Numbered from the stretch's first letter, positions 26,807 to 59,143 are shown. The stretch is DNA of 64,000 nucleotides from Candidatus Woesearchaeota archaeon (GCA_016935985.1 JAFGPW010000004.1:152752-216751); one strand, 5' to 3'. A program made the numbers and translations. Notes: a model not told the origin generated them from the sequence alone.

Positions 26807-26865
26807 TCTCTCTCACTCCATGAGCAACAGATTTAAATAGCACCATCGCGGGTATCACCATCGGG

Positions 26866-33676: not shown

Positions 33677-34423
33677 GTGAATCAGACCATGGCACGCCAA
33701 CCCGTACGACGGATCCTGATCCATAGCGGCTCGGTCTTCTATGTCCGTGACCTCTCTTCCGACTACCACTGCCAGCACGGCAGGATCGCGAAGGCTGACC
33801 TCATGAAACGGGCGGGCTCGCGCATCAGGAGCAACACGGGCAGGGAGTTCGTGCTGCTGCGTCCGGGCTTCCGCGACCAGCTGGCGAGGATGCGGCGCGG
33901 CCCCCAAATCATCCCAGCGAAGGACGTGGGGGCGATTCTCGCGATGACCGGCATCGGCAAGACGAGCGCGGCGGTCGATGCCGGCTGCGGCAGCGGCGCG
34001 CTCGCCCTCTCTCTCTCCCAGGTGGCAAAAAGGGTCACGAGCTACGAGGTGCGGGAGGACTTCTTCAGGATCGCGGAGGAGAACAAGCGCCTCCTCAAGG
34101 CCGCCAACCTCACGCTCAAGAATCAGGACATCACGCTCGGCATCGACGAGCGTTCGGTCGACCTCGTCACCCTCGACCTCCCGGAGCCCTGGAAGGCGAT
34201 CCCGCACGCGCACGCGGCGCTCAAGCCCGGCGGGTGGCTCGTCTCCTACAGCCCGAGCGTCCCGCAGGCGATGGACTTCCTCGCGTCGCTCGGGGAGCGG
34301 TTCATGCATGTCCGGACGATCGAGCTCATCGAGCGCGAGTGGGAATTCGAGGGCAGGAAGGTGCGCCCCAGGAGCAGGATGCTCGGCCATTCGGGATTCC
34401 TCTCGTTCTGCCGAAAGGTTTAA
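33677..34423 (+). CDS. trmI: tRNA (adenine-N1)-methyltransferase TrmI/Gcd14-like
   Basis: The SAM-binding motif VDAGCGSGALALSL, the DLPEPW motif, and ~250 aa. Confidence 0.75.
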   Translation: MNQTMARQPVRRILIHSGSVFYVRDLSSDYHCQHGRIAKADLMKRAGSRIRSNTGREFVLLRPGFRDQLARMRRGPQIIPAKDVGAILAMTGIGKTSAAVDAGCGSGALALSLSQVAKRVTSYEVREDFFRIAEENKRLLKAANLTLKNQDITLGIDERSVDLVTLDLPEPWKAIPHAHAALKPGGWLVSYSPSVPQAMDFLASLGERFMHVRTIELIEREWEFEGRKVRPRSRMLGHSGFLSFCRKV

Positions 34424-34460
34424 ATCGGTCGCCCGCCTACCCCCTGTTGGGGGTGCAGCC

Positions 34461-34688
34461 ATGCTGGCATATGTCTTGGTGGCGCTCGCGACGAACCGGG
34501 AGAAGGACGTCTTCGACGCTCTATCCAATCTTCCGCAGGTGCGCAAGATCCACATCCTCTTCGGCGAATGGGACATGATCGTCGAGGTGCAGTGCGCTAG
34601 CCCTGAGGACCTCGCGGACTTCGTCATGAACAGCATTCGCACCACGAAGGACGTCAAGCTCACGAGCACGCTGATCGTCGCGCAGTGA
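34461..34688 (+). CDS. Stand-alone Lrp/AsnC C-terminal (RAM) regulatory domain protein, 75 aa
   Basis: A beta-alpha-beta-beta-alpha-beta pattern (VLVAL.T..EKDVFDALSNLPQVRKIHILFGEWDMIVEV) with no HTH region. Confidence 0.55.
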   Translation: MLAYVLVALATNREKDVFDALSNLPQVRKIHILFGEWDMIVEVQCASPEDLADFVMNSIRTTKDVKLTSTLIVAQ

Positions 34689-34743
34689 CGATCGCGCCGG
34701 GGGTTGGAAAGGTTTTAATAGGATAGGATCCCCTGTAGGGTGC

Positions 34744-35748
34744 ATGTCCATCGAGCTCATCCTCAAGCCGCTCTCGCTCGAACGGCGGCCGCGAAACATC
34801 TTCCCCTTCGGGCTCCTGTTCGCGACAATCGCAGTCATCCTCACGCTCCTCGCATTCCCCAGGGACAGCTCGATCCTGGTGGTCACTTTCACCGTCATCC
34901 CGCTCGTCCCTATCTTCATCAAGATCATCGAGATCGAGGAGCGGGACTACGAGCGGCGGCCGCGGCGGCTCTTCTTCAGGCACAACATCCTGCAGGTGTA
35001 CGCGTGGCTCTTCCTCTCGCTCATCATCGGCTTCTCGCTCTGGTACGGCTTCCTGCCCGAGGAGACGTCCTCGCGTGTCTTCGGCTCGCAGCTGCGGGCG
35101 CTCTACGACTCTTCCGAGGGGACCCCTGGGCAGCAGGGGAGCGCGAACTACGGCGCAGGACCGGTCTCGGCGCGCCTCTGCGACAGCTCGCTCCTCTCCG
35201 GACTCCTCATATCCCACGACATCACCGACTGCGTCGTCTCCGACGTCGACCATGACGGGGCCGCCGAGTACCTCGTCTATGAGCGTCAGGAGGGAAGGCC
35301 CTTCATCGTCTACCTGACGGCGGCGGGCGAGTACGTCTCGTACCGCACCTTCATGTCGAGAGTCATCATCCTGAACAACCTGCAGCTCCTGCTCTTCATC
35401 TTCCTCACCTCGTTCATCTTCGGCGCCGGCGCGCTCTTCGCCCTGATATGGAACGCCTCGATCATCGGCGTCTTCGTCGGCGCGAGCATGAGGGGGCTCT
35501 CCGGCACGCTCCCGCCGCTCGCCGCATATGCCCACTCGCTCGGGCTCTCGCTCTGGACGATCGCGCTCCACGGCGTCCCTGAGATGCTCGGCTTCTTCAT
35601 CGGGGCGCTTTCCGGCGGCATCGTGAGCGTCGCGGTCGTCAGGCACGGGCTATCGAGGCAGAGCCTGCCGGTCCTAAAGGATTCGCTCTGGCTCTTCGCG
35701 CTGGCGGTCGGCCTGATAGCCATCGCTGGCGTCATCGAGGTGCTCTGA
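34744..35748 (+). CDS. Integral membrane protein (6-7 TM; possibly DUF95/SpoIIM-like)
   Basis: Hydrophobicity pattern only. Confidence 0.4.
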   Translation: MSIELILKPLSLERRPRNIFPFGLLFATIAVILTLLAFPRDSSILVVTFTVIPLVPIFIKIIEIEERDYERRPRRLFFRHNILQVYAWLFLSLIIGFSLWYGFLPEETSSRVFGSQLRALYDSSEGTPGQQGSANYGAGPVSARLCDSSLLSGLLISHDITDCVVSDVDHDGAAEYLVYERQEGRPFIVYLTAAGEYVSYRTFMSRVIILNNLQLLLFIFLTSFIFGAGALFALIWNASIIGVFVGASMRGLSGTLPPLAAYAHSLGLSLWTIALHGVPEMLGFFIGALSGGIVSVAVVRHGLSRQSLPVLKDSLWLFALAVGLIAIAGVIEVL

Positions 35749-35750
35749 CG

Positions 35751-36320
35751 ATGCGGACGAAGCCCCAGATGCGCGTGCTCGGGATCGACGACGCGCCGTT
35801 CGACCGCAGCAGGAAGGGGGCGCGGGTGCGGCTCGTGGGGGTGGTCGTCCGCGGCGCGGACTACCTCGATGGCATCCTCTCCACCTCTGTGACGGTCGAC
35901 GGCAGGAACGCGACCGCTCGAATCGCCACCATGGTCAACGGCTCGAAGTGGAAGAGGCAGCTCCAAGCGATATTCCTCGACGGCATCGCGGTCGCCGGCT
36001 TCAATGTGATCGACATACGACGATTGCATGCGGAGACCGGCATCCCGGTGGTCGTGGTGATGCGGCGGCAGCCCGACATCGCGGCGATCCGCCGCGCGCT
36101 CGAGAGATCGGGGATGCCGGAGCGGATGCGGGTCATCGGCCGCGCGCCCCAACCCGAGAAGGTCGGCGACATCTATGTCCAGGCGATAGGCACGGAACGG
36201 GAGGAGATGAGGCGCGTGCTCAGGATATGCTGCGCGCATGCGAAGGTTCCTGAGGCGCTGCGGCTCGCGCACATCATCGCGTCAGGCGTGACCGACGGTG
36301 AGAGCAGGGGCCGCGCCTAG
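35751..36320 (+). CDS. UPF0215/DUF99 family protein
   Basis: The N-terminal motif MRVLGIDDAPF is characteristic of archaeal DUF99 proteins, ~190 aa. Confidence 0.55.
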   Translation: MRTKPQMRVLGIDDAPFDRSRKGARVRLVGVVVRGADYLDGILSTSVTVDGRNATARIATMVNGSKWKRQLQAIFLDGIAVAGFNVIDIRRLHAETGIPVVVVMRRQPDIAAIRRALERSGMPERMRVIGRAPQPEKVGDIYVQAIGTEREEMRRVLRICCAHAKVPEALRLAHIIASGVTDGESRGRA

Positions 36321-36322
36321 GA

Positions 36323-38077
36323 TCAGGTATAATAGCGTTTCCCGGCCTCCTTCTGCCTGCGGTCCATCACCGACCCTTCCTTGTTGATGCGGGGACGGTG
36401 CGACTCCTGGTCGCGCCGCATGGTGATGTCGAGGTCGCCGAGGAAGCGGTTCATGCCTTCCCCCATCGTGAACGGGCCGGTGACAGCGCCTCTCCTCGCC
36501 GGTTCGCCGTCGAAGACGATGAGCTTCTCTGAGAGGTAGTCGATGAAGAGGAGGTCGTGGTCGATGACCAAGACAGTCTTTCCCGCCTGCTCGGCGAAGT
36601 CGCGCAGCACCTTCGAGACGATGAGCCGCTGCTCGACGTCGAGGTAGGCAGAGGGCTCGTCGAGGAGATAGAGGTCTGCTTGCTGGGCGAGGCAACGGGC
36701 GATCGCGACGCGCTGGAGCTGGCCGCCGGAGAGCTCGGCAAGGGTCTTGTCCATGAGCCGGTCGAGCCCGAGCGGCCTGACGACCGTTGTCTGGTGTTTC
36801 GCGACCGCGTCGGCGAGGATCATGGCGGCAGGAGCGTCGCCTGCCTCGAGGTACTGCGGCTTATACGACACCTTCCCGGTGTCGGAGAGCTCGCCCGCGT
36901 CCGGCTGTATCTCGCCCGCGAGGATGCGCGCGAAGGTGGTCTTGCCGATGCCGTTCTCGCCGAGGATGCCGAGCACCTGCTCCCGCTGCGCCTCTCCCCC
37001 TTCTGCGGTGAGCTCGAAGTCGCCGAGCGTCTTCTTGAGGCCCTTCCAGGCGAGCAGCGTCTCGGTCCTCCTGGCGGATTCGGAGGGACGTGTCGAGAAG
37101 GCGATCGCACTGTCGCGGAAGCGCACGTTCTCTTCCTTCAGGTAGCCTGAGAGGTAGGTGTTGATGCCGGCCTTCGTCGCCTTCGGGCCGGACACGATGC
37201 CGTAGGCGTTCTCGGCGCCGTACATCAGGTGCACGAGGTCGGTCATGTAGTCGAGGATGATCAGGTCGTGCTCGACCACCAGGACCGCGGTCTCCTCATC
37301 GGCGAGCGAGCGTATGAACCGCGCGACCCTGATGCGCTGCTTGATGTCGAGGTGGGACGACGGCTCGTCGAAGACGAGCAGGTTCGCCCGCTTGAGGACC
37401 GTCGCCGCGATCGCGACGCGCTGGAGCTCGCCGCCGGAGATGTGCGTGATGTCCCGGTCGAGGATTTTCTCCAGCTGGAGCAGGGGGACGATCTCGTCGA
37501 GCATGCCGCGCTCGTCGGCCTTGGTGAGGAGGTCGCGGACCCTGCCGCTAAAGGCCTTCGGGATCTGGTCGATGTTCTGCGGTTTGTAGCCGATCCTGAT
37601 GCCGCCTGCCTTTACCTCCTCGAAGAAGCGCTGCATCTCGCTCCCCTTGAAGCGCTCGATCAGCTCCTCATGGCTCGGCTCCCCCCAGAGGTTGCCGAGG
37701 TTGGGCTTTAGCGTGCCGGCGAGGATCTTTATCGCGGTCGACTTGCCGATGCCGTTCCTGCCGAGGATGCCGACGACCTTGCCGAAGATGGGTATGGGGA
37801 GGTTGTAGAGGTGGAAGCCGTTCTCGCCGTACTGGTGGATCGGCGCTGAGCCGAGCTCCTCGGGCAGGTTGATTATGTGGATCGCGCCGAAGGGGCAGCG
37901 CTTGGGGCAGATGCCGCAGCCGGTGCAGAGCGCTTCGTCTATCCTGGCCTTGCCGTCCTCCCCTTGTGTGATGCAGTCGGTGCCGGTCCTGTTGACTGGG
38001 CAGAGCTTCCTGCAGAGGAAGTCGCCGCATTTTACGGGGAAGCACCGGTCCTTCTCGACGACAGCGATGCGTGCCAT
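36323..38077 (-). CDS. abcE1: ABCE1 / RNase L inhibitor-like ribosome recycling ATPase
   Basis: N-terminal 4Fe-4S ferredoxin cysteine clusters (CFPVKCGDFLCRKLCP; CTGCGICPKRCP) followed by two ABC ATPase domains with Walker A/B motifs and LSGGELQR/LSGGQLQR signatures. Confidence 0.9.
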   Translation of the reverse strand: MARIAVVEKDRCFPVKCGDFLCRKLCPVNRTGTDCITQGEDGKARIDEALCTGCGICPKRCPFGAIHIINLPEELGSAPIHQYGENGFHLYNLPIPIFGKVVGILGRNGIGKSTAIKILAGTLKPNLGNLWGEPSHEELIERFKGSEMQRFFEEVKAGGIRIGYKPQNIDQIPKAFSGRVRDLLTKADERGMLDEIVPLLQLEKILDRDITHISGGELQRVAIAATVLKRANLLVFDEPSSHLDIKQRIRVARFIRSLADEETAVLVVEHDLIILDYMTDLVHLMYGAENAYGIVSGPKATKAGINTYLSGYLKEENVRFRDSAIAFSTRPSESARRTETLLAWKGLKKTLGDFELTAEGGEAQREQVLGILGENGIGKTTFARILAGEIQPDAGELSDTGKVSYKPQYLEAGDAPAAMILADAVAKHQTTVVRPLGLDRLMDKTLAELSGGQLQRVAIARCLAQQADLYLLDEPSAYLDVEQRLIVSKVLRDFAEQAGKTVLVIDHDLLFIDYLSEKLIVFDGEPARRGAVTGPFTMGEGMNRFLGDLDITMRRDQESHRPRINKEGSVMDRRQKEAGKRYYT

Positions 38078-38323
38078 GGCGCGGGGAAAGGAGGGGGAGG
38101 ATTAAAAAGGTTTGCTGGTATTAATTATTTTCAATATAGTAAAAAAATGAGTACGCGAGGAAGACGACCTGACGACTCAAGCACGTCCCTCTCCCACGAG
38201 GCCGTGCGATTGACACAGAGAATCGGGGACCTGGACTGATCGCGGCGCTTGCGCGGTCCGGTAACGGCAGCCGCAGGCAAATCTTAAATAGAGAGACGCA
38301 CGATAGGGAATGTTACGATACAA

Positions 38324-38863: not shown

Positions 38864-39025
38864 ACCAGGCGCTGCCCTCACATCCCCATCCCTATTTTTT
38901 TATAGGGTATAGGGCATGAGCTCCGTTAACGGGGCCTGTCCATGCGGATATTAATCCTTGAGTAGTATCATTTATATACAACCTCGATTCTGCCTACTGA
39001 TTACGGAGACGCGTCGTTGAGATGC

Positions 39026-40990
39026 ATGGCGAAACGCACACTGTGGAGAACACTGCTCCGGAGACTCAACGGAGATACGAACCGCAGCAAGGACCTGGAC
39101 ATCCTCTATGAACGGTTCCCTGCCATGAAAGGGCTGGTCAGGACCAGCCTCTACTTCGGGATCTTCAGGGGGCTCATGGATCTTTCGGTCGGCGCCAAGC
39201 TCTACATGAACCTGCCGGACATCGGCGTGCTGAGCACGCTGACCAGCTTTTCCTTCAACGTCCCCGGCGACTATCTCGGCGAGGTGCGGGGCACCGACTT
39301 CGTCAACGAGAGGGTCAACGCCATCAGCCCACGGAGCAAGGTCGCGTCCCTTCTCGAGAGCAGCTGCGGTTTCCTCGAAGACGCACCGATGAAGGCGCGG
39401 ATCTCCCTTGAGGAGTACCTAAAGGAAAAATATTTCGAGACAGACGCCGAGTTCGAGGAGCGCTATCTGAGGAATTTCAGCAGGATCGATTCCATACTGC
39501 AGCGGCATCCGGAGGGCGGGCAGGCAGCAAGGGAGATCGGCGACGTGCTCTTCGGCACGAGGTCGCCCTTGCCGTGCAAGGACCAAACCCTCATCTCGCT
39601 GCTTCAGGACCTCCGGCCGATCGATGCCGACGAGATAGAGCAGTCCTTGCGGAAATTCTACGGCCAGATATCCGCGATCCCAGCGAACATCCCAACCTCG
39701 AGCCGGCTGTGGACGAGGGGACGGTACATCGATCTGGTGCGGGGCTTTGCCAGCGTCGCGAAGAACGGCTTCTACGACGAGATGGACGAGGAGCTGAAGG
39801 TGATCCGCGAGGCCGAGGAGACCATCAAGGACATCAAGGAAGGGAAGAAGCTTTCCAGAGATGACTATGCCGACCTCGACCGGATCGCGAGGGAGTACCT
39901 GGCGTTCCTGATGACCACGCAGGTGGTTTTCCATGAGGGTGAGGAGAATCTGAACCGGGTCGCGAGGATCCTCGACGCCGTCAAGCGGGGGCATAACCTC
40001 GAGCCCGGCAGCAAGAGGTACCTCGGCGCCTTCATCGCTGAGTACCGGCGCTTCCTCGACCTGAGCAGGGCCTGTTTCCCCGACGCGGATCTCGCGAGCC
40101 TCGAATCCAAGCTGCACGCTGCAGGAACGTTCATGAACGGATGCGTGGAAACAAGACAAGGCAGTCCTGACGACGCGATCGGCCTCTTCACCGACTACAT
40201 GGCGAAGCTGCGCAGGGTGGACGCCTCGATGGACAAGGAGACGCTGGAGAGCAAGATACGGTCGGTCAGGGACCTTATCAGGAAGATCGGGTCGAAGGAG
40301 ATACACCAGAAGACCGAGGAGCTCGACGAGCTCCTCGCCTACATAGACTCCCGTGAGTATGCCATGAAATCCGCCGGCGTCTCGGAGAAACGGGCCTATT
40401 GCCCGCTGGCCGAAGCGAAGCGGCGGTTCATCGATTCCCCGCTCGCCGAATTCACTAGGGACCTGACGAAGGCGGAGACCGATTCGATCATCGGCCTCTG
40501 CTTTTCCGAGGCGGAACGGACCACGAAGTATGAGATAGCGACTCAAGGGACGCTCTTCGGGCTGCTCGGCCTCAGCTGGATCAGGCCGGAGTTCTCCGAG
40601 ACCACTTTAGTCAACGCGATCGCGTGGGGGCTCCCGCTTGCGGGCAGGTCGCTCATGGAGAGCTATTACACCACGAAAGGAGGCAGGGTGATGACCGCTG
40701 CCATGACCCATATCTTCTTCAAGAGCTTCGAAAAAGAGGGCATCAACGCCGAGACGGCGTTCAGCGAGTACGACTCGACCATGATGCAGGCATATAACAG
40801 GGGATATTTCGGAGCGATGGCAGGCTCGCTCCTTCCCGCCTACTACGCGACGAGCTCCGCCAACCCCTTGCCCCTCACGGTCCCTATCTTCGGCTCCCTG
40901 GTCTTCTTCGGCCTGGCATACAGGTCATGGTTCAGTTCAGTGCGGGCCTTGAAGTCCCAGATTTACGAGCACGCGAAAGGGCTCGCATAA
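39026..40990 (+). CDS. Hypothetical 654-aa protein: mostly alpha-helical and soluble-looking, with a hydrophobic C-terminal quarter
   Basis: A long ORF with balanced composition. The first ATG lies in frame 9 nt after the ORF-track TTG, and no domain is recognised. Confidence 0.5.
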   Translation: MAKRTLWRTLLRRLNGDTNRSKDLDILYERFPAMKGLVRTSLYFGIFRGLMDLSVGAKLYMNLPDIGVLSTLTSFSFNVPGDYLGEVRGTDFVNERVNAISPRSKVASLLESSCGFLEDAPMKARISLEEYLKEKYFETDAEFEERYLRNFSRIDSILQRHPEGGQAAREIGDVLFGTRSPLPCKDQTLISLLQDLRPIDADEIEQSLRKFYGQISAIPANIPTSSRLWTRGRYIDLVRGFASVAKNGFYDEMDEELKVIREAEETIKDIKEGKKLSRDDYADLDRIAREYLAFLMTTQVVFHEGEENLNRVARILDAVKRGHNLEPGSKRYLGAFIAEYRRFLDLSRACFPDADLASLESKLHAAGTFMNGCVETRQGSPDDAIGLFTDYMAKLRRVDASMDKETLESKIRSVRDLIRKIGSKEIHQKTEELDELLAYIDSREYAMKSAGVSEKRAYCPLAEAKRRFIDSPLAEFTRDLTKAETDSIIGLCFSEAERTTKYEIATQGTLFGLLGLSWIRPEFSETTLVNAIAWGLPLAGRSLMESYYTTKGGRVMTAAMTHIFFKSFEKEGINAETAFSEYDSTMMQAYNRGYFGAMAGSLLPAYYATSSANPLPLTVPIFGSLVFFGLAYRSWFSSVRALKSQIYEHAKGLA

Positions 40991-43077: not shown

Positions 43078-44091
43078 TCAGAGGCGCTTTCCCTCGTACT
43101 GGGCGATATGCCGCAGACCGCCCATGAGCCGGGAGAAATGCTCGACCGTTATCGTCTGCGCCGCATCCGAGACCGACCGCTCGGGATCGGTGTGCACCTC
43201 GACCATGATGCCGTCGGCGCCTGCCGCTATCGCCGCCTTGCTCATCGGAATGATGTACTCCGGCCTGCCGGTCCCGTGCGAGGGATCGACGATGATCGGG
43301 AGGTGGGAGAGCTGCTTCACCGCAGGCACGACGCACAGGTCGAGGGTGTTGCGCGTGTAGTCGTTGAAGGTCCTGATACCCCGCTCGCACAGGATCACGT
43401 CAGGATTCCCCTCCTTCATGACGTACTCGGCGCTCATCAGGAACTCCTCGAGCGTCGCGCTCATCCCGCGCTTGAGCAGCACCGGCCGCCTGGCCTGCCC
43501 GACCGCACGGAGGAGATCGTAGTTCTGCATGTTGCGCGCGCCTATCTGGAGGATGTCGGCGTACTCGGCGACGAGCGGCACCAGCGCAGGGGTCATCACC
43601 TCGGTGACGACCGGAAGGCCGGTCGCCTCGCGCGCCTGCGCGAGATACACGAGTCCCTTCTCGCCAAGACCGTTGAAGGAATAGGGGCTGGAGCGCGGCT
43701 TGAAGGCGCCGCCGCGGAGCACTGTCGCCCCGACGTCCTTAACCGCATGGGCGATCTCGACGATCTGGTCCCTGCTCTCGACCGCACAGGGGCCAGCCAT
43801 CACGCAGAGCGTGCCGTTTCCGACGCTCGCGGCTCCCGCCGTGACGAGCGTGTCCTCGGCCTTCGTCTCCCGCGAGACGAGCTTGTACTGCGCGAGCACC
43901 CGTTTCACGTCCTCGACGCCGTGCATCGCCTGGAACGCCTCGACGTCGAGAGTGCGTTCATCACCGATGATCGCGATCACCGTCCGTTCGATGCCGTAGA
44001 GCGGCCGCGGCTCGAGCCCGACGCCGTTCACCCTATCGATGACATGCTGGATATCCGCTTCGTTCGCTCCCTTCTTCATGGTTATTATCAT
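43078..44091 (-). CDS. 3-deoxy-7-phosphoheptulonate (DAHP) synthase, type I-beta with an N-terminal ferredoxin-like regulatory domain (or the closely related KDO8P synthase family)
   Basis: A DAHP/KDO8PS TIM-barrel with the motifs [20 protein letters not shown] and DPSHG, plus a ~70-aa N-terminal ACT-like domain. The start is placed at MIITMKKG. Confidence 0.75.
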
Positions 44092-44348
44092 GGCATTCCA
44101 CCGTGTCCTTGAGGCGTCGAGAGCGTCCAATCTAGGTTTGTTCCGCATGGCCCCGCTTCCGGAATGATCAGAAGGGAGCCTTATTGATAGAAGAAAAACC
44201 CGAAGAACGCGCTCTGCCAGCTCGCACTGCATGCATGGTCCTGCCCGGGCTGGCTGCCACTCATGCCTCCCTGAAGCGCTGCAGTCATATAAATAAGTTT
44301 CGGGACCGAAGGCCAAGGCTTATATACGGACCCCTTTTCCGGCCACGC

Positions 44349-45383
44349 ATGGAGAATCTTCCCGCTGATCACGAGGAGACGGTCAGGAGAGCCGGAGAAG
44401 TCTTCAGAGGACGCTTCCCACCGACGACACGCTTCGAGCGCGCGCTGTTCTACGGCTGGTACTGCAGCATCGGCGACTGCGGTTTCTGCTACATGTCCCT
44501 CCCCCACAACCGGACGCGCCCTGGCGCGAGGCGGAGCGTCCACTCGCTCGTCGCCGAGACCGTCCTGTGCAGGGAGCTCGGCTGGAATCTCGGCTTCCTC
44601 TCAGGCGGCCATGACGCCCATACCCTCATCGACTTCCGGCGATTGGTGCGGGCGGTGAGCGAGGCCTATGGGGAAAAGGTATGGATCAACGCAGGCCCGC
44701 TCATGGCAGGAGATCTCAGGCCGCTGCTGCCGTACCTCAAAGGCATCGTGGCATCGATCGAGACGGCCAATCCAGGGATTCACGAACGAGTCTGCCCTTC
44801 AAAGCCGATGGGGCCTTTCGAGGAGTCGCTCAAGGCCGCCACTGGATTCGGCCTCGCGCGCGCGATGACGATCATCCTCGGGCTCGGCGAGACGACTGAC
44901 GACTATCCGCTGCTCAAGGAATTCATCACGAAGCACGGCATCTCCAAGATCCATTTCTACGGGCTCAACCCGCATCCAGGCACGGTCTTCGAGGACGCGA
45001 AGCCGCCGTCTGCCGCCTACCACTCCTGGTGGATCGCGAAGACCAGGATCGATTTCCCGGGAATCGACATCCAGGCAGGCATCTGGGAGGACCGTGCGGG
45101 AAATGTCGCAGAGCTCCTGCGCGCCGGCGCGAACTCGATCTCGAAGTTCCCTGCGATACGCCGGTTCGGAGGCGTCGCCGCGCGTGAGATCGAGCGGCAG
45201 GCGGCAGCCGCGGGAAGACGGTTCGAAGGAACGCTCACCGCGCTTCCTGAGGTCGACTGGCAGGCCCGCGTGGATGCGCTCGCGCTCCCGGAAGAGGACA
45301 GGGCGCTCGTCAGTGCGAAACTCCGCGCGTATCTGCAGAGGATGCGATCAGGGAGTCCCCGCCCGGATACAGCTCGAGCGTGA
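44349..45383 (+). CDS. Radical SAM-like protein with non-canonical Cys spacing (CSIGDCGFC = Cx4Cx2C); function not assigned
   Basis: A Cys triad near the N-terminus followed by a GG.D-like motif and a TIM-barrel-like pattern. A TATA box (catataaata) lies ~60 nt upstream, and the upstream ORF extension is rejected. Confidence 0.45.
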   Translation: MENLPADHEETVRRAGEVFRGRFPPTTRFERALFYGWYCSIGDCGFCYMSLPHNRTRPGARRSVHSLVAETVLCRELGWNLGFLSGGHDAHTLIDFRRLVRAVSEAYGEKVWINAGPLMAGDLRPLLPYLKGIVASIETANPGIHERVCPSKPMGPFEESLKAATGFGLARAMTIILGLGETTDDYPLLKEFITKHGISKIHFYGLNPHPGTVFEDAKPPSAAYHSWWIAKTRIDFPGIDIQAGIWEDRAGNVAELLRAGANSISKFPAIRRFGGVAAREIERQAAAAGRRFEGTLTALPEVDWQARVDALALPEEDRALVSAKLRAYLQRMRSGSPRPDTARA

Positions 45384-46767
45384 TCCCGGCATTCTGATAG
45401 AACAGGTAGGCGCTGCCCTTCGGCAGGATGACATGGAAGGGATTGTCGTCGTACGCCATCGGGGTCCAGGTACCGAAGAACTGGGGGTTGAGCGCCTTGA
45501 ACGAGTCCAGGGCGATGCCCGCATGCCGCGCGAGGTCGGCGATGCGCATCCGCTTCGGCACCATGACGATCTCGAGGCTGTCCCTCACGCCCTCGTCGAC
45601 CATGAAGCCGAACCTTGCGGGATCGGTCGCGATGACGTAGCCGGCGGCCATGATAAGGGGGTAGTTCTGATTCTCGAAGGTCCTGAAATGCGGCTGGAAA
45701 TCCATGAAGTCGACCGTGCCGTAATAGCCGTTCCAAGTGAAGAAGTCCTGTATCCCTTCGACGGGCGTCCCTCTCCGTGCCTCGGTGATGAGATAGTCCC
45801 AATAGCGGTTGTCGGGATCGATGTGGTACCGTGCCTGCACCGCAGGATCGCGGAGCGCTGCGTCGAGGTCCGCGATGAGGCCGCTTTTCCCCCGGTTGTA
45901 GCCTTCGAGCGCGAGGTGCCAGTCGCCCACGAGCGCGAAGAGCTCCCGCTTGTGGCCCGCAGCCGCGACGGTCGACCTGACGAGGTCGTAGCGCCCGTCG
46001 TACCGGTCGGCGTAGCCGTTCCTCTGGTCGCCGATGGCGATGCCGCTGCTCCTGGCGGTGCTGTACTTGAACTGCCACCAGCCCTTGGCACGCGCTCCCG
46101 ATTCCGCCGTGCCGTCGAATCCTGATTCGAAGAGCGCGTTCCAGGCGAGGGCGCTCGGCAGGCCGGCGACTGAGAAGAGCTGTTCCATGAAGCCGATGTA
46201 GGGCTGGGCTGCGGCGAGCGATTCGCCGGTCCTCCCGCGCATGCCACGCTTGTAGAAGAGGTCGTCGAAAGGTATGCCGAGCTCGCGCGAAAGCGCCGTC
46301 TTCTTCGCCCGCATGATCCGCTGGTCGACGGTGGTCGTGTCCCGCCAAGGGTCGGTGATGAGGTAGGGCCTGATCCCCCGCTTCTCGTAGACCTCGAGCG
46401 TGCGGTTGTTGTAGAAGAACACGCTGTCCTCGGTCGTGGTGAGGACGTCGATCCAGAAGTCGACCTTTGGGCCGGCGAGCGGCCGGTAGGCCTGGAAGGA
46501 CCCCTTCTCGAGGGCCGACACGTTTCGTGCAGGGAAGGATATCGTGATCGGGGAGCCATGCTCTGGCGCAGGGGCGTCCGCGGCGACAGAGTCGATCGAC
46601 CGCTCGATCACCGTCGGGAGGGAGGGAGAGGGGAGGTCAGGATAAGTCTTCTTAGGGAGTATCGAAGGAAGGTTCACGAGGAGATAGAGCCCGACGACGA
46701 CGGCGAGCGAGGAGAGCCCCGCCTTCGCGATCCTCCCGCTGTCCATGGCTACCTTCGGAGGGTCCAT
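45310..46767 (-). CDS. Membrane-anchored lytic transglycosylase-like protein (family 1 SLT catalytic domain)
   Basis: An N-terminal TM helix and the SLT motifs E-S (FESGFDGTAESG), GWWQF (GLMQ-like) and EGYNRGKSG (AYNxG-like). Its 3' end overlaps the convergent radical SAM gene by ~74 nt. Confidence 0.6.
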   Translation of the reverse strand: MDPPKVAMDSGRIAKAGLSSLAVVVGLYLLVNLPSILPKKTYPDLPSPSLPTVIERSIDSVAADAPAPEHGSPITISFPARNVSALEKGSFQAYRPLAGPKVDFWIDVLTTTEDSVFFYNNRTLEVYEKRGIRPYLITDPWRDTTTVDQRIMRAKKTALSRELGIPFDDLFYKRGMRGRTGESLAAAQPYIGFMEQLFSVAGLPSALAWNALFESGFDGTAESGARAKGWWQFKYSTARSSGIAIGDQRNGYADRYDGRYDLVRSTVAAAGHKRELFALVGDWHLALEGYNRGKSGLIADLDAALRDPAVQARYHIDPDNRYWDYLITEARRGTPVEGIQDFFTWNGYYGTVDFMDFQPHFRTFENQNYPLIMAAGYVIATDPARFGFMVDEGVRDSLEIVMVPKRMRIADLARHAGIALDSFKALNPQFFGTWTPMAYDDNPFHVILPKGSAYLFYQNAGITLELYPGGDSLIASSADTRGVSH

Positions 46768-46817
46768 GCGCGACAGGGAGCGCGAGGCACTATAAAAAAG
46801 TTGCGCGCGAGGGGACC

Positions 46818-48029
46818 TCACTCATACCGCAGCGCGTCGACCGGCTGCTGCCTGGATGCCTGCATCGCGGGAAGCACGCCGGAACCCGCGCCGACGACGA
46901 AGGCGAAGAGGATGCAACCGGCGGAGAGGTACCAAGGGAAAATCGGCTGGAGCGCGGAATAGCCGACCGCGGCGGCGATCGCGCCGGCAGCCGAGGAGAC
47001 CAGGTAGCCGGAGAGGACGCCGAGGACGCCGCCGATCATGCCGAGGACGCCTGCCTCGAAGATGAAGATGAAGAGGATATCCTCGTTCCGCGCGCCAATC
47101 GCCTTCATGATGCCGATCTCCTTGGTCCGCTCGAGGACGGCGGTGTACATAGTGTTCATGATGTTGACCGAGGCCACGACAACCGAGATGAGGGCTATCA
47201 GGATCAGCATGCCGACGATCACGTCGATCACCGTCCCGAAGGTCTCGAGGAGGTCCGCGTAGGTCTGGACATAGAAGGACTCTTTCCCCACATCCTCGCC
47301 GCGGCGCTTGCGCAGCTTGTCCTCGATGGTCTTGGCGAGCCCTTCGGGATCCGTGCCCTTGTCCGCCTCGATCAGCGCGTAGCCGAACTTGTCCGCCTTG
47401 TCCGGGAACATGCTCTCGAACATATCGAAGGAGAGGTAGACGTTCCCGTCGTCCTGAGGGTTGCCCACTTCCTCGTAGAACCCGACGATGGAGAATGGCT
47501 CGCCGTTAATCTCTACCCTCTCACCGAGCCGCAGCCCGCGCTTGAAGATCTTGTCATCGAGGAGGTAGTTGTAGCCGAGCACCACATTGTTCATGTCGCC
47601 GTCCTCGAGATTCCTGCCCTTGTCTACCTTGACCGTCATCGCCCGGTCGATGAAGTCGATGCTATCCGGGTCGAGGCCCGCGATGAAGTTATAGGCCTTC
47701 TCCTTGCCGGAGACGATCTCGCCGACGCCCATGTACATCCCGGTGGCCTGCGAGACGCCGTTGATGCGCTCGACGAAGTCGAGATCGGCCCCGGTCACGT
47801 AGAAGTTCGTGTCCATCCCAGGGGCGGCCGCGCCCTTCGACATCAGGAAGAGCATGCTCGCCCCCGCCTCGTCGGCGAGGGTGTTGACATAGTTGTTGAT
47901 GCCGAGGCCGAACGAGATGAGGGCATAGATTGCCATCACGCCGATGAGGATGGAGAGGACGGTGAGGAAGCTCCGCGTCTTGCGGTGCACGAGGTTCTGC
48001 AGGGAATAGCGCATCTCGTCGGCTCTCAT
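46818..48029 (-). CDS. ABC transporter permease, FtsX/MacB-like (N-terminal TM helix, large extracytoplasmic domain, three C-terminal TM helices)
   Basis: Topology and the conserved C-terminal FtsX region (IGIMKAIGARN...). Confidence 0.75.
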   Translation of the reverse strand: MRADEMRYSLQNLVHRKTRSFLTVLSILIGVMAIYALISFGLGINNYVNTLADEAGASMLFLMSKGAAAPGMDTNFYVTGADLDFVERINGVSQATGMYMGVGEIVSGKEKAYNFIAGLDPDSIDFIDRAMTVKVDKGRNLEDGDMNNVVLGYNYLLDDKIFKRGLRLGERVEINGEPFSIVGFYEEVGNPQDDGNVYLSFDMFESMFPDKADKFGYALIEADKGTDPEGLAKTIEDKLRKRRGEDVGKESFYVQTYADLLETFGTVIDVIVGMLILIALISVVVASVNIMNTMYTAVLERTKEIGIMKAIGARNEDILFIFIFEAGVLGMIGGVLGVLSGYLVSSAAGAIAAAVGYSALQPIFPWYLSAGCILFAFVVGAGSGVLPAMQASRQQPVDALRYE

Positions 48030-49255
48030 TTGACGAACCTCAGCGCGTCGACCGGCTGCATGCGGGACGCCTGGAGCGCAGGGACGATGCCTGCGGAAAG
48101 GCCGATGACGAAGGAGAAGATGAGCGCTCCCAATATGAGCATCGGGCTCACGTTCGCCTGGATGAGGTCAAACCCGAAGGCCGCACGCCCGGCCGCCGCC
48201 CCGCCGTAGGCGAGGAGCATGCCGAGCAGGATGCCGATGAGGCCGCCGACCATGCCCATCAGGCCTGACTCGATGGCAAAGAGCGAGAAGATCACCGAGT
48301 TCTTCGCGCCGATCGCCTTCATGATGCCGATCTCCCGGGTGCGCTCGAGGACGGCGGTGTACATCGTGTTCGTGATGCCGATGCCGCCGACGACGAGGGA
48401 GATCGACGCGATGATGTAGACGAAGAGCTGGATAGCGAACAGCGTCGAGTTGAGCGACTCGATCGCGTTCTGGGGGGATTCGACCGTGAAGTCCTCCTCG
48501 CCCTTCTTCACGCTCCGCTCCTTCCTGAGGACCTTCTCGATGTCCTCCTTGACGCGGTCCATCCTTGAGACGTCCTGGACCTTCACGCCGAGGATGTTGA
48601 TGTCGTCGCGGCTCCCGTTCCTGAAGAGGTCGAGCATGACATCCTCTTCCATCACCACGATGTTGTCGAAGAGGAAGCTCCCCTTCTTCTCCATGATGCC
48701 GACGACCTCGAACGGTCTGCCGCTGATGAGCACGCGGTCACCGGCATTGATGGGCTTGCCGAACGCGTCGCTCGAAAGGAAATTGTTGCCGAGCAACACA
48801 AGGTAGGTGTCGCCTTCCTTGAGGAGGCGTCCCTGCACCACCTTCATGTTGATCATCGTCTCGACAAGCTTGCGGTTCTTCCCGCCGGGCATCGACATGG
48901 CGTATCCGATGCCCTGGACGTCGTTGAACTCGAGCGTGCCGCTCTCGACGTAGCGGGGGATGACCGCCTCGACGCCGTTCACCCCCTCGATCGGCTTGAT
49001 GAGGTCCTCGGTGAGCGGCTCGACGACGCCGATGCCCGGCGGGCCCGCGAAGTCGAGCCCCTGCGCGCGCACTGAGAGGACGTCGGTGCCGAGGAAGCCG
49101 AACTGGGCTGAGATCGCGGTGCGTAGTCCCTCGCCGAGGCCGATGAGCCCCACCACCGCGGCGATGCCGATGAAGATGCCGAGCATGGTCAGCCAGGAGC
49201 GCAGTCGCCGCCTCGTGATGTTCGCGAGCGACATGAGGAGGTAGTCCTTGAGCAT
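48026..49255 (-). CDS. ABC transporter permease, FtsX/MacB-like (paralog)
   Basis: The same architecture (IGIMKAIGAKN...) and a 4-nt overlap with the downstream permease. Confidence 0.75.
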   Translation of the reverse strand: MLKDYLLMSLANITRRRLRSWLTMLGIFIGIAAVVGLIGLGEGLRTAISAQFGFLGTDVLSVRAQGLDFAGPPGIGVVEPLTEDLIKPIEGVNGVEAVIPRYVESGTLEFNDVQGIGYAMSMPGGKNRKLVETMINMKVVQGRLLKEGDTYLVLLGNNFLSSDAFGKPINAGDRVLISGRPFEVVGIMEKKGSFLFDNIVVMEEDVMLDLFRNGSRDDINILGVKVQDVSRMDRVKEDIEKVLRKERSVKKGEEDFTVESPQNAIESLNSTLFAIQLFVYIIASISLVVGGIGITNTMYTAVLERTREIGIMKAIGAKNSVIFSLFAIESGLMGMVGGLIGILLGMLLAYGGAAAGRAAFGFDLIQANVSPMLILGALIFSFVIGLSAGIVPALQASRMQPVDALRFVK

Positions 49256-49305
49256 CTCTCAGCACCGGGGCATGATGGAGGGGAAAAGAAAGGAAAGGGG
49301 GATGG

Positions 49306-50565
49306 TCACTTCTTCATCCCGTTGTGGTTGCGCCGCTTCTTGCGCCAGCGCCGCCAGAGCACGAAGCCCACGACGAGCACCACGACGACGCCGAGGTAGA
49401 TACCGACACCGCTCTTTTGGACGAGGCCGTACTGCTCCAGCTGCTCCGCCGTGTAGAGCGGGACCTTGAGCTCCACCCGCATGGAGTATTCCTTGTTGTT
49501 CGGGTCGAGGTAGGTCACCTGGAGGGGGAGCGTCACCGCGCCGGAGGCCGCCTTCTCGATGTAGAGGTCGAAGTCAGCGGTCTCGTAGTCATCGGAGTCA
49601 ATGTTGCCGAGGTAGAGCTCGGTGGGCGAGAAGACCTTGTAGAGGTCTGACCCTTCGAGCACGACGTTGACGAACTTGACGTCCGAGAGCCCGCGGTTGA
49701 CGAACTTGACCGTGACCTCTCCCTTCGAGCCGGAAGATCGGATGTCTGTGGTGTCGAGGATGACCGAGAGGTCGGGCGTGCTCCCCACCACGAGACTCGT
49801 CACCGCGGCCATGGTGTAGTCCTCGCCGTCCATGTCGCTGTAGGTGATGGCGACGGGGATCTTGTAGACGCCGGAAGCGGCGTCAGATTCCGCGATGAGC
49901 TTGAACTCGACCGCCTGCTCCTTGCCGGGGTCGAGCCGCTTGATGACCTTCTCGTTCGTCGAGTCGACCGGCGCGAACGGCACGTCAGTGCCCGAGAGCC
50001 CGAGGGAGACCTTGATGTCCTTGAGGCCGGTCCCGACCATGTTCTTCAGCCGCATGGAGACGTCGACCGTGTCGCCGGGGGAGACATGGGAGGGGTCTGC
50101 GGTGACGTCGACAATCGAGATGACGGCGTTCGATGAGCCGACCCTGACGTCGAAGTCGTCGGTGGGGTGCCAGATGTCGTCAGCCCCCTTCTTGTACCTG
50201 AGGCTGAGCTTGGAGATCCCGTCGATCGCGTCGGCATCGACCCTGAGCCGGTAGGCCATGATGGCCTCCTGGTCCTCGTCCGCGCTCGCTCGGATCGACC
50301 CGTAGTAGCGCATCGCCGAGGCGCCGGGATCGAGGGAGAATGGATAGTTGTATATGAGCTCGAAGCTCACGTCCTCCGCCTGCTGCGTGCCGACGTTCTC
50401 GATCAGGAACCTGACGTCGACGTAGCCGCCGGGCTCCGCCGGGAAGGGGTCCTGGTTGAGCAGGGTGACCGTGAGCTTCGATGCTGTCGGGGTCGCCCCG
50501 AACGCCGGCACGATGCCTATCATCATCATGACTGTCAATGCCATCGCGAATGCTGTCTTACGCAT
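49306..50565 (-). CDS. Secreted, C-terminally anchored protein built of repeated beta-sandwich (CARDB/COG1361-like) domains
   Basis: A signal peptide MRKTAFAMALTVMMMIGIVPAFGA; three to four ~100-aa repeats with alternating hydrophobic beta patterns; a C-terminal TM helix plus RRWRKKRR. Confidence 0.6.
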   Translation of the reverse strand: MRKTAFAMALTVMMMIGIVPAFGATPTASKLTVTLLNQDPFPAEPGGYVDVRFLIENVGTQQAEDVSFELIYNYPFSLDPGASAMRYYGSIRASADEDQEAIMAYRLRVDADAIDGISKLSLRYKKGADDIWHPTDDFDVRVGSSNAVISIVDVTADPSHVSPGDTVDVSMRLKNMVGTGLKDIKVSLGLSGTDVPFAPVDSTNEKVIKRLDPGKEQAVEFKLIAESDAASGVYKIPVAITYSDMDGEDYTMAAVTSLVVGSTPDLSVILDTTDIRSSGSKGEVTVKFVNRGLSDVKFVNVVLEGSDLYKVFSPTELYLGNIDSDDYETADFDLYIEKAASGAVTLPLQVTYLDPNNKEYSMRVELKVPLYTAEQLEQYGLVQKSGVGIYLGVVVVLVVGFVLWRRWRKKRRNHNGMKK

Positions 50566-51298
50566 GTGATTCACCTCGTCTGCTGGTGGGATTCGATGAG
50601 TGTGCATGGTTGTTCTTGGTGTCCTTGACGATCGCGCCGTCCTTCAGGTAGACCACCCGGTCGGCGTATTTCGCCAGGTTCTGGTCGTGCGTGACCATGA
50701 TGATCGTCTTGTGCTTCTCGCGGTTGAGCTTCTTCATGAACTCCATCACGTTGATGCCGGTCTTGGAGTCGAGGTTGCCGGTCGGCTCGTCGGCGAGGAT
50801 GACGTCGGGGTCGTTCACGAGCGAACGGGCGATCGCGACCCGCTGCTGCTGCCCGCCGGAGAGCTCGGTCGGCTTGTGGCCTATCCGGTCGCCGAGCCCG
50901 ACGAGCTCGAGCACTTCCCGCGCCTTCACGATGCGCTCCTCGTGCGGGACGTCCTGGAATGTCATGGGAAGCATCACGTTCTCGAGCGCCGTGAGCGTCG
51001 CTATCAGGTTGAAGTTCTGGAAGATGAAGCCGATTGTCTGGCCGCGGATCTGGGCGAGGTCGGACTCGTCCATCTCGGAGATGTCATCGCCGTTGAGGAA
51101 GATATGCCCTTCGGTCGGGATGTCGAGGCAGCCCACCATGTTCATCATGGTCGACTTGCCGCTGCCCGACGGGCCTTCGATCACGAGGAACTCGCCGGGA
51201 TAGATATCAAGGTTAGCATTGCAGACTGCCATCACATTGACCTCTCCCATCTGGTAGGTTTTGCATACGTCCTTGAGCCTGATGATCGGGTGCGCCAT
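50558..51298 (-). CDS. ABC transporter ATP-binding protein (MacB/LolD-like)
   Basis: Walker A GPSGSGKST, the signature LSGGQQQRVAIARSL, Walker B ILADEPTGNLD and an H-loop. Confidence 0.85.
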   Translation of the reverse strand: MAHPIIRLKDVCKTYQMGEVNVMAVCNANLDIYPGEFLVIEGPSGSGKSTMMNMVGCLDIPTEGHIFLNGDDISEMDESDLAQIRGQTIGFIFQNFNLIATLTALENVMLPMTFQDVPHEERIVKAREVLELVGLGDRIGHKPTELSGGQQQRVAIARSLVNDPDVILADEPTGNLDSKTGINVMEFMKKLNREKHKTIIMVTHDQNLAKYADRVVYLKDGAIVKDTKNNHAHSSNPTSRRGESHA

Positions 51299-51303
51299 GA
51301 TTC

Positions 51304-51786
51304 TCACATCCTCTCGATTTTCGCTTGCATCTCCTTCATGATGGCATCGAACCTCATCAGCTGCGTGTAGTAGTCGGTGATGATCTGGAGCTTCTTGCGC
51401 TCGATATCGGTGAGCTTCGCCTTTCTCGCGCTCTCGATGATGGGGGGGATGGTCCGCTTCGCCGGCTCGATGAAATGGGCAGTGAAGGCGTCCATCTTGC
51501 TGCGCAGGAGGGTAGGCAAATCGCTCTCTATATGATAGTAGACCTTCTTCGATCCCGGCCTCTTGGTCCGCTGGACCTGGCCGATGCTCTCGAAGAGCTT
51601 GAGCTTGCTCGAGACCGAGGCGAGAGAGTAGCCGGTCCGCTCCGCGAGCTCGTGTATCGATATCTCCCCCGGTTCCAGGAACAGTACGCCGACGAGCTTC
51701 GCGCCGAGCATATCCATGCCGAAACTCCTGAAAACCTGGATGATGAAATCCTGGAACTCCTTCTCGAATGCCGCCATTTTCACCAT
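51304..51786 (-). CDS. Winged-helix transcriptional regulator (MarR/TrmB-like) heading the ABC operon
   Basis: An HTH region (ISIHELAERTGYSLASVSSKLKLFESIGQV) followed by a wing (RTKRPGSKKVYY). Confidence 0.55.
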   Translation of the reverse strand: MVKMAAFEKEFQDFIIQVFRSFGMDMLGAKLVGVLFLEPGEISIHELAERTGYSLASVSSKLKLFESIGQVQRTKRPGSKKVYYHIESDLPTLLRSKMDAFTAHFIEPAKRTIPPIIESARKAKLTDIERKKLQIITDYYTQLMRFDAIMKEMQAKIERM

Positions 51787-57314: not shown

Positions 57315-57404
57315 GCGACGGGCCTCGACGCGCCATCCACCCTATGCCAACATATAGGTTCCGGGCGAGAAATGCATAAATATATCCCAGCATGCCGTCA
57401 GGAA

Positions 57405-59057: not shown

Positions 59058-59143
59058 GGCCTCCCCTTCTCCTCGATATCCCTGGCCTGGCATCCTCCCT
59101 GGATACAGTAAGGTTTATAAATGACACCCGGTTCCCTGAGGCC

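Follow-up and report, generated by a model that had tools for sequence, protein, structure and literature searches.

A predicted MltD-type lytic transglycosylase encoded by a Woesearchaeota archaeon

Introduction

Here we describe an archaeal gene whose product is, on the evidence of sequence and predicted fold, very probably a lytic transglycosylase of subfamily 1D (the MltD type), an enzyme that cleaves peptidoglycan. The gene is located on a stretch of 64,000 nucleotides (nt) from Candidatus Woesearchaeota archaeon (GCA_016935985.1 JAFGPW010000004.1:152752-216751), referred to below as the window, and encodes a protein of 485 amino acids (aa). We propose that a lineage of Woesearchaeota acquired it from bacteria, that it has since been domesticated and that its product is likely to act on foreign peptidoglycan, with the walls of contacting bacteria as the most likely target. 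An earlier note on this DNA had described a family 1 lytic transglycosylase in an archaeon; this assignment is supported here and refined to subfamily 1D. The protein is identical to MBN2567009.1 in NCBI, which is encoded on a contig of 254,745 bp and forms a singleton cluster, and whose GenBank record already labels it as SLT-domain-containing.

An MltD-type catalytic module

The reading frame and the three motifs from which the enzyme had first been recognised (E-S, GWWQF and EGYNRGKSG) were checked against a list of open reading frames (ORFs) and motif positions, and were found where the earlier note had placed them. The ES motif (E214-S215) is encoded at 46123-46128 and the GWWQF motif at 46069-46083, while residues 286-297 read LALEGYNRGKSG. 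The transglycosylase ORF is the only one of the region with a coding-like pattern of G+C content at third and second codon positions (GC3 0.85 versus GC2 0.46); long antisense and out-of-frame ORFs in the same stretch fail this filter and are by-products of a G+C content of 62%. The ORF list also includes an alternative GTG start at 46821, which would yield a protein of 503 aa, i.e. 18 codons more.

Searches with hidden Markov models place the protein in the SLT family, as had been claimed, since Pfam SLT (PF01464/GH23) matches residues 211-295 with 31.6 bits against a cut-off of 21.3 bits (E=1.3e-7) and the conserved glutamate is present in the alignment (E214). The NCBIfam model for MltD (NF008050/PRK10783) gives a partial match over residues 187-297 (E=1e-13), which at 50.4 bits falls short of the curated equivalog cut-off of 508 bits. 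The sole match by sequence in the PDB (phmmer) is the Pseudomonas aeruginosa MltD (PaMltD; 8rhe, E=7e-7), and tblastn matches to bacterial MltD cover residues ~150-460. A phage origin was also considered and rejected in favour of the MltD type; matches to PHROG families are weaker (at most 35.7 bits) and are limited to the SLT core.

An AlphaFold2 model built from 37 homologues is confident over residues 170-485, with predicted local distance difference test scores (pLDDT) of ~80-95 across most of the catalytic domain, and has a goose-lysozyme-like α-helical fold. When the model was compared with the PDB using Foldseek, the top 21 matches were all lytic transglycosylases (MltD, MltE, MltF and the soluble Cj0843). 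The six best of these are chains of MltD (8rhf/8rhe/8rhi) with E values of ~1e-10 and target-normalised template modelling scores of 0.6-0.7, the alignment to the 276-residue MltD chains extending over ~290 aligned columns, and MltE, MltF and Slt rank well below them. Subfamily 1D enzymes possess extra N-terminal helices that lengthen the cleft of the active site, and the model includes helices at residues 146-163, 170-173 and 176-200, albeit with a moderate pLDDT (50-69) over residues 146-175.

The active site appears to be intact. By alignment (phmmer) to PaMltD and its published structure, E144-S145 corresponds to E214-S215, S153 to S223, G159/W161/Q162 to G229/W231/Q232, the substrate-binding tyrosine Y214 to Y290, and Y249, the tyrosine that hydrogen-bonds the catalytic glutamate, to Y369 (PMC11327851). 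All of the residues named as important in the PaMltD structure are thus retained. In an alignment of 38 sequences E214, S215, S223, G229, W231, Q232, Y290 and N291 are invariant. Motif II, which is of the G-L-x-Q type and forms the clamping loop, corresponds to G229-W-W-Q232, and the AYNxG motif to Y290-N-R-G293; the G, W, Q, Y, N and G of these motifs are invariant as well. Among 75 columns with at least 85% conservation in the bacterial relatives, 45 are retained in the archaeal protein.

A LysM1-like module and the missing wall-binding repeats

The earlier note had described a C-terminal region of ~300 aa that could not be assigned. This does not hold, since the motifs lie in the middle of the protein (residues 214-295) and only ~190 aa follow them, which can be assigned to the remainder of the MltD module and to a LysM1-like module. 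In the PaMltD structure a cryptic LysM1 packs onto the catalytic domain and represents a hallmark of family 1D (PMC11327851). In the model of the archaeal protein the corresponding region has a β-α-α-β topology according to DSSP (strand 398-403, helices 409-416 and 420-426, strand 444-449; pLDDT 80-96), and in hhalign residues 396-450 match the canonical LysM repeats that the bacterial relatives carry, with a probability of 83% (E=9e-6). Judged by the model, and by its alignment with the same region of bacterial MltDs, this segment would be the cryptic LysM1 typical of family 1D.

The mobile C-terminal LysM repeats are absent; no Pfam LysM match was found in the protein at E values up to 1, and the chain stops 35 residues past LysM1. 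SLT together with at least one LysM repeat is found in nine of the ten best relatives. When the three frames downstream of the stop codon were read by eye for a LysM remnant, nothing LysM-like was seen, the DNA there being the antisense strand of the neighbouring radical S-adenosylmethionine (SAM) gene. The tail of the protein, YPGGDSLIASSADTRGVSH (residues 467-485; 45313-45369, minus strand), resembles, in the alignment, the first half of canonical LysM repeats from bacterial MltDs. It was rejected as a truncated LysM2, because residues 475-485 are antisense to a conserved helix of the radical-SAM protein and Pfam finds no LysM there; the resemblance may be a coincidence or a partial remnant.

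Membrane anchor, linker and predicted topology

The maximum Kyte-Doolittle mean over 19 aa is 2.0, and the only segment of the protein above 1.6 spans residues 13-39, which largely coincides with a helix of the model (residues 11-35). The N-terminal transmembrane anchor that had been proposed is therefore plausible. Bacterial relatives carry L-x-x-C lipoboxes in the alignment, and a lipoprotein signal is a feature of family 1D; the archaeal protein is devoid of cysteine throughout and so has no lipobox. Residues 13-39 would thus serve as a signal anchor in place of the lipobox signal of the bacterial relatives.

The segment between anchor and enzyme is predicted to be disordered, with a pLDDT below 50 over residues 36-124 and 130-144 and a composition over residues 36-144 that includes 13 prolines, nine threonines and nine serines. 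Neither the Pfam nor the NCBIfam scan gave a family match within residues 40-145, and it is this segment, rather than the C-terminus, that is truly without assignment. We read it as a stalk or linker of ~105 aa. The arrangement suggests an N-in/C-out topology, in which the enzyme would be located outside the cell.

Bacterial ancestry and insertion into an archaeal locus

The attribution of the gene to an archaeon is confirmed by the content of the window, with genes for RLI/ABCE1, Nop56/58, fibrillarin, an RFC-like clamp loader, topoisomerase VI A and B, a RIO kinase, Endo_dU and two over-long tRNAs, and by the genes that neighbour the transglycosylase, which match Woesearchaeota best. On one side lies a convergent gene for a radical-SAM protein, which appears native to Woesearchaeota, its best homologues being 50-57% identical and found in genomes named Woesearchaeota or Nanoarchaeota. 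On the other side is an operon conserved in Woesearchaeota that includes FtsX-type permeases (Table 1).

We compared the gene order around the radical-SAM/FtsX block in six related archaeal loci, and an SLT homologue is present in none of them. In four of the six, no more than ~3 kb separates the radical-SAM gene from the FtsX genes or block. In the locus L002 nothing lies between, the FtsX gene beginning 13 nt past the radical-SAM stop codon. In L003, L004 and L006 the operon block encodes proteins with 34-67% identity to those of the window (FtsX 39-59%, CARDB 34-38%, ABC ATPase 65-67%), and the gap between the block and the radical-SAM gene is occupied by an AI-2E transporter and/or other genes. 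Since the related loci keep the neighbourhood without an SLT gene, the transglycosylase gene represents an insertion specific to the lineage, at a position whose content varies in surroundings that are otherwise conserved. Around the gene we found no mobile-element footprints in the form of flanking direct or inverted repeats, beyond the paralogy of the FtsX genes and chance matches.

Relatives of the protein are distant and bacterial. Apart from the protein itself, an exhaustive HMMER search of 1.84 billion cluster representatives (~15 billion proteins) returned nothing below E=1e-30 and a best score of 96 bits, and with the protein as the query no close relatives were detected in GTDB species genomes. 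Scanning 185,579 species genomes with an alignment recovered 591 relatives. The best 80 come without exception from bacteria (Nitrospirota, Acidobacteriota, Zixibacteria, Elusimicrobiota, Bacteroidota and others); identity over the segment that matches best is 22-41%, with typical values of 23-31% over residues 150-480. Where the top HMMER matches carry a name, they are bacterial MltDs, one of them from Nitrospirota. The bacterial origin that had been suggested for the gene is thus supported by the provenance of its 80 best GTDB loci and its named top matches and by the related Woesearchaeota loci that lack it. Because only the protein itself was found below E=1e-30, no donor can be assigned and no ratio of non-synonymous to synonymous substitution rates (dN/dS) calculated. 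The codon-usage distance (0.085) and the GC3 are within the range of native genes, and since the gene is in this respect indistinguishable from them the transfer must be old or the gene fully adapted.

Could the gene simply be a bacterial sequence misjoined to archaeal DNA during assembly or binning? That all of its relatives are bacterial would fit such an artefact, which we nevertheless hold to be extremely improbable: the gene is located inside its long contig with archaeal genes on both sides and neighbours in Woesearchaeota synteny, and it has native codon usage and GC3. An independent Logan assembly of SRR13394437 displays the same gene order and the same overlap with the radical-SAM gene; as the gene also physically overlaps an archaeal one, a chimeric join is for practical purposes ruled out.

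A second possibility is that the gene is a decaying leftover of a past transfer, without present function. In favour of this, the protein is a singleton without a close relative among ~15 billion proteins, its SLT domain scores low, C-terminal LysM repeats are lacking and the 3' end of the gene runs into the neighbouring gene. Against this stand the intact frame of 485 codons with a native GC3, the retention of all catalytic and structural key residues at ~30% overall identity to the relatives, the confidently modelled fold of the catalytic module and LysM1, and a promoter-like element at the distance seen for native genes. We therefore consider decay quite improbable, and a domesticated gene of bacterial ancestry the better reading.

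Expression signals and the relation to the FtsX operon

A TATA-like box precedes the ATG start codon of the transglycosylase gene (Table 1). AT runs of at least 8 nt are rare in the window, with only 53 in 64 kb, and mostly intergenic. Comparable runs begin 29-36 nt before the start codons of the genes for the radical-SAM protein, RLI, a class II aminoacyl-tRNA synthetase (9328-10833), SecF, orf405 and MscS; no such box precedes the internal genes of the ABC operon. The gene would hence have its own archaeal promoter and give rise to a leaderless mRNA that starts at or near 46767. Throughout the window TATA-like AT runs begin at this distance from the start codons of many genes, for instance at 44320-44326, 38101-38108, 59114-59122 and 26831-26839, and point to leaderless transcripts being widespread in this genome.

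The earlier note had also drawn attention to the adjacency of the gene to an ABC/FtsX surface cluster. The adjacency itself stands, the FtsX/MacB genes being located directly upstream on the same strand, whereas a functional tie looks incidental, given that the relatives' operon lacks the enzyme and that the gene has a promoter-like element of its own. The alternative merits a description nonetheless. By analogy with bacteria, in which FtsEX controls wall hydrolases, the transglycosylase could work with the adjacent MacB/FtsX-type ABC system and be activated or positioned by it; as an effector of the ABC machine, the tethered enzyme would be switched on at sites of bacterial contact by ATP-driven movements of the FtsX extracellular domains. 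Besides the position directly downstream of the two MacB_PCD+FtsX permeases, the CARDB protein and the ABC ATPase, this idea draws on the alternative GTG start at 46821, which would create a 4-nt overlap with the upstream stop codon and could permit translational coupling to FtsX. We disfavour this start codon, since the gene calls speak against it and since the extension that it would add contains the TATA-like box, which favours a leaderless transcript of its own from ATG 46767. Furthermore, the operons in L003, L004 and L006 have other genes or nothing in the position of the transglycosylase, and an FtsX/MacB neighbour is present at none of the 80 bacterial MltD loci. Coupling to the ABC machine, and with it the effector model, thus seems very improbable. 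No lytic transglycosylase is known to act as an FtsEX partner; if the coupling were real, it would represent the first FtsX-family partner of this class, a cross-domain weapon and an archaeal counterpart of the FtsEX-hydrolase systems. Membership of the locus in a defence system was rejected as well, PADLOC yielding only generic ABC/LolE matches.

At its 3' end the transglycosylase gene overlaps the radical-SAM gene by 74 nt. The overlap, previously put at ~74 nt, is fixed by the two stop codons and was reproduced by an independent gene call on the separate Logan assembly. The last 24 codons of the transglycosylase (residues 462-485) are antisense to the end of the radical-SAM gene and correspond to nothing in the MltD catalytic module or LysM1. 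In the radical-SAM protein the C-terminal helix KLRAYLQRM is conserved in the homologues, and according to the alignment the protein of the window has ~10 extra residues after this helix. The simplest reading would be that each gene came to extend briefly into the other, following insertion and the loss of the 3' part that coded for the LysM repeats.

Substrate and biological role

Together, these features suggest the following mechanism. The N-terminal signal anchor would hold the protein in the archaeal membrane, and the disordered linker would present the enzyme part, an MltD catalytic module fused to LysM1, outside the cell. There E214, positioned by Y369 and flanked by S223 and the clamping loop G229-W-W-Q232, would cleave the β-1,4 bonds between N-acetylmuramic acid (MurNAc) and N-acetylglucosamine (GlcNAc) in a non-hydrolytic fashion, so that the products would bear 1,6-anhydro-MurNAc ends. 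As the host makes no peptidoglycan, the substrate would have to be foreign, and we regard foreign peptidoglycan as the probable substrate. Most likely it would be the wall of bacteria touching the archaeon, which the enzyme could cut for local opening, attachment or killing. With the roaming LysM repeats lost and the lipid anchor exchanged for a transmembrane anchor, the enzyme would stay on its producer, and both the loss of the repeats and the membrane tether fit an action at cell-cell contacts. GH23 lytic transglycosylases have been reported in Woesearchaeota and Pacearchaeota, where they are read as tools against bacterial walls (PMC8204110, PMC9723730, PMC10936187), and archaeal peptidoglycan hydrolases of other classes have been shown to kill bacteria (PMC12352652). 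An antagonistic action on bacterial walls is consistent with this literature, with the predicted outside topology, with the intact catalytic residues and with the domestication of the gene.

Several observations weigh against this proposal. The SLT domain has diverged strongly, scoring 31.6 bits compared with 81-107 bits in the bacterial relatives. Among the 75 conserved columns 30 are changed or absent, eight of them because the protein ends before the C-terminal LysM repeats, and the position of P211 (P141 in PaMltD), nearly invariant in the relatives, is occupied by alanine. Two insertions, at ~244-256 and ~305-345, interrupt the catalytic module; from the alignment these appear to be lineage-specific and the residue changes peripheral. 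Given the divergence, Ala211 and the insertions, the specificity of the enzyme may be altered. The topology is derived solely from hydropathy, with the charges that flank the hydrophobic segment leaving its orientation unsettled, and the protein is a singleton, so that selection cannot be measured. No peptidoglycan-salvage or toxin genes were seen among the ~50 ORFs scanned in the window. Finally, Gram-negative bacteria have an outer membrane that shields their peptidoglycan.

The enzyme could alternatively have a nutritional role, in which it trims free peptidoglycan debris (necromass) and thereby frees amino sugars and peptides for uptake, while living cells are not attacked. DPANN archaea have been described as scavengers (PMC9723730), and MltD accepts glycan strands whether or not they bear stem peptides and acts in both endo and exo modes (PMC11327851); the enzyme is moreover tethered rather than released, and its long-range LysM anchors are lost. 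On the other hand, a cell-bound enzyme would be inefficient on dispersed debris, and the 64-kb window, which is part of the genome, contains no anhydro-MurNAc kinase, MurQ, NagZ or muropeptide permease. Scavenging is in our view rather unlikely, though it is the alternative that we would consider first, and of the two uses contact-dependent opening of walls is somewhat more likely than scavenging of debris.

GH23 includes chitinases. The enzyme might accordingly have been re-targeted to a glycan other than murein, such as chitin or chito-oligosaccharides, or a glycan in the envelope of the archaeon itself or of its host. The strong divergence of the SLT domain and the proximity of the two insertions to the cleft would suit this explanation. 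Pseudomurein, which the earlier note had offered as an alternative target, contains β-1,3 links to N-acetyltalosaminuronic acid, links that are not cleaved by enzymes of the lysozyme fold, and it is restricted to the Methanobacteriales and Methanopyrales; the host groups with Woesearchaeota outside these orders, which makes it an unlikely substrate. No chitin-related genes were seen near the transglycosylase gene, and all of the residues named for the lytic transglycosylase mechanism are retained. PaMltD does bind chitotetraose in its cleft (PMC11327851), and we judge a non-murein substrate to be improbable. Ranked by falling likelihood, the alternatives to an action on the walls of contacting bacteria are thus debris scavenging, another glycan, a decaying gene, FtsX coupling and an assembly artefact.

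Comparison with known systems

The closest structurally characterised protein is PaMltD (PA1812; 8RHE/8RHF/8RHI), the best PDB match by both sequence and fold. The two proteins have in common a catalytic module with extra N-terminal helices, the ES motif, the equivalents of S153, Y214 and Y249, the GxWQ motif, a DGR-x-D motif and a LysM1 that follows the catalytic domain. They differ in that identity is limited to ~20%, in that the archaeal protein has a cysteine-free transmembrane anchor instead of a lipoprotein signal, and in that the three mobile LysM modules of PaMltD are missing. Only the archaeal protein has alanine in place of P141 and tryptophan (Trp230) in place of L160, the two insertions, the long disordered linker and a host without peptidoglycan. 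With the E. coli-type MltD equivalog (NF008050/PRK10783) it shares the core match; its score and the absence of Pfam-detectable LysM repeats set it apart from that group. To judge from sequence and predicted fold, the protein has the features tested for family 1 and most of those tested for subfamily 1D, the exceptions being the equivalog score, the lipoprotein signal and the mobile LysM repeats.

The published DPANN transglycosylases (fam00969; Vigneron 2022, PMC9723730; PMC10936187) resemble the protein in being of the bacterial SLT/GH23 type, encoded in Woesearchaeota genomes and predicted to be extracellular. The murein-like lytic transglycosylases of fam00969 are widespread in Pacearchaeota and Woesearchaeota and very large, with up to ~3,000 aa (Castelle 2021, PMC8204110); by this published description they are distinct from the protein reported here, which has 485 aa, a complete MltD core architecture and no close relatives. 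As no protein in the 15-billion collection scores above 96 bits, it is not a close relative of any published DPANN transglycosylase.

The GH25 muramidase of Aciduliprofundum boonei and Woldo/Danwoldo of Halogranum salarium (PMC12352652) are likewise cutters of bacterial origin with an export signal in archaea that have no peptidoglycan. These enzymes are a muramidase, an M23 peptidase or a glucosaminidase, whereas the protein described here would by its sequence be a lytic transglycosylase, has no separate wall-binding repeats and is probably tethered rather than secreted. The bacterial FtsEX-hydrolase systems provide a parallel in that a wall-cleaving enzyme is encoded beside FtsX-family permeases and an ABC ATPase; they differ in their conserved co-occurrence, which is not found here, the ABC operons of related archaea lacking the enzyme and the 80 MltD loci lacking FtsX.

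Organisation of the window

The features of the transglycosylase gene and its immediate neighbours are listed in Table 1.

Table 1. Coordinates of the transglycosylase gene, its parts and the adjacent genes within the window
Feature	Position	Strand	Details
MltD-like lytic transglycosylase, coding sequence	45310..46767	-	485 aa from ATG; stop codon 45310-45312; GenBank MBN2567009.1
Pfam SLT core	45883..46137	-	residues 211-295; E214-S215, S223, G229-W-W-Q232, Y290-N-R-G
MltD-type (family 1D) catalytic module, predicted	45610..46332	-	residues 146-386; Foldseek, tblastn, alignment
LysM1-like β-α-α-β module, predicted	45418..45582	-	residues 396-450; DSSP on model, hhalign
Pro/Ser/Thr-rich region, predicted disordered	46333..46650	-	residues 40-145; read as stalk/linker, ~105 aa
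Hydrophobic segment IAKAGLSSLAVVVGLYLLVNLPSILPK	46651..46731	-	residues 13-39; hydropathy; model helix 11-35
TATA-like box TTTTTTATA	46791..46799	-	begins 32 nt upstream of ATG 46767
Convergent overlap, 74 nt	45310..45383	.	fixed by stop codons; last 24 transglycosylase codons (residues 462-485) antisense to radical-SAM end
Radical-SAM protein, PRK06267 family, 344 aa	44349..45383	+	convergent neighbour; NCBIfam PRK06267 E=1.5e-77
Upstream operon, conserved in Woesearchaeota	46818..51786	-	Pfam
MarR/PadR-like regulator	51304-51786	-	upstream operon
ABC ATPase	50558-51307	-	upstream operon
CARDB surface protein	49306-50607	-	upstream operon
Two MacB_PCD+FtsX permeases	48026-49255, 46818-48029	-	upstream operon

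Woesearchaeota are mostly AT-rich, and the G+C content of the window (55-66%, with a GC3 of ~0.8-0.94) is unusually high for the group. The nearest homologues of the native radical-SAM gene are only 50-57% identical, which points to a sparsely sampled lineage. Extended synteny is apparent between 33677-38077 plus 44349-48029 of the window and positions 2357-9308 of L002, which is from the Woesearchaeota assembly GCA_014729345.1, the shared order being GCD14 methyltransferase, Endo_dU, RLI, radical SAM and FtsX. Between RLI and the radical-SAM gene the window has ~6 kb extra, comprising a 657-aa ORF, a YggS-like gene, a tRNA-Thr, a CxxCxxCC protein and DAHP synthase. The DAHP synthase ORF (43078-44316, minus strand) has a TTG start 10 nt past an AT run, and as its Pfam match begins at residue 76 the true start is probably located further downstream. 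The AT-rich stretch at 44287-44326 looks like a divergent promoter region shared by the DAHP synthase and radical-SAM genes.

Three ORFs on the plus strand (6374-8614, 39017-40990 and 26866-28083, encoding 746, 657 and 405 aa) have a coding-like GC3 and no Pfam family, and a fourth (30637-33666, plus strand, 1009 aa) contains only a Big_9 Ig-like domain; all four may encode surface or interaction proteins. At 3888-6317 (plus strand) an 809-aa protein with a T2SSE domain (a type II/IV secretion or pilus ATPase) is encoded and followed by the 746-aa ORF, and the two could belong to a system for secretion or surface filaments. Two tRNA genes on the plus strand, at 26506-26618 and 26674-26799, were found by Rfam and missed by ARAGORN; their lengths of 113 and 126 nt far exceed the 71-nt model, so that they probably contain archaeal introns. 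A 583-aa ORF at 57342-59093 (minus strand) is spurious, being an outlier in codon usage with a GC1 (first codon position) of 0.88 and a GC3 of 0.60. The real gene opposite is that of CTP synthase (57372-59057, plus strand), and the pair illustrates how long antisense ORFs originate in a GC-rich genome.

Implications

The general phenomenon to which this gene belongs has already been published, and the gain lies in detail rather than in a new principle. The protein provides an example of a bacterial envelope enzyme that would have been refitted for an archaeal host, with its anchor swapped, its wall-binding repeats lost, an archaeal promoter gained and its codon usage fully adapted. At 485 aa, and interpretable against the solved structure of MltD, it represents a compact candidate with which to probe the interaction between archaea and bacteria in DPANN. 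A gene for a peptidoglycan cutter in a cell that lacks peptidoglycan hints directly, at the genomic level, at such an interaction, be it attack, attachment or feeding.

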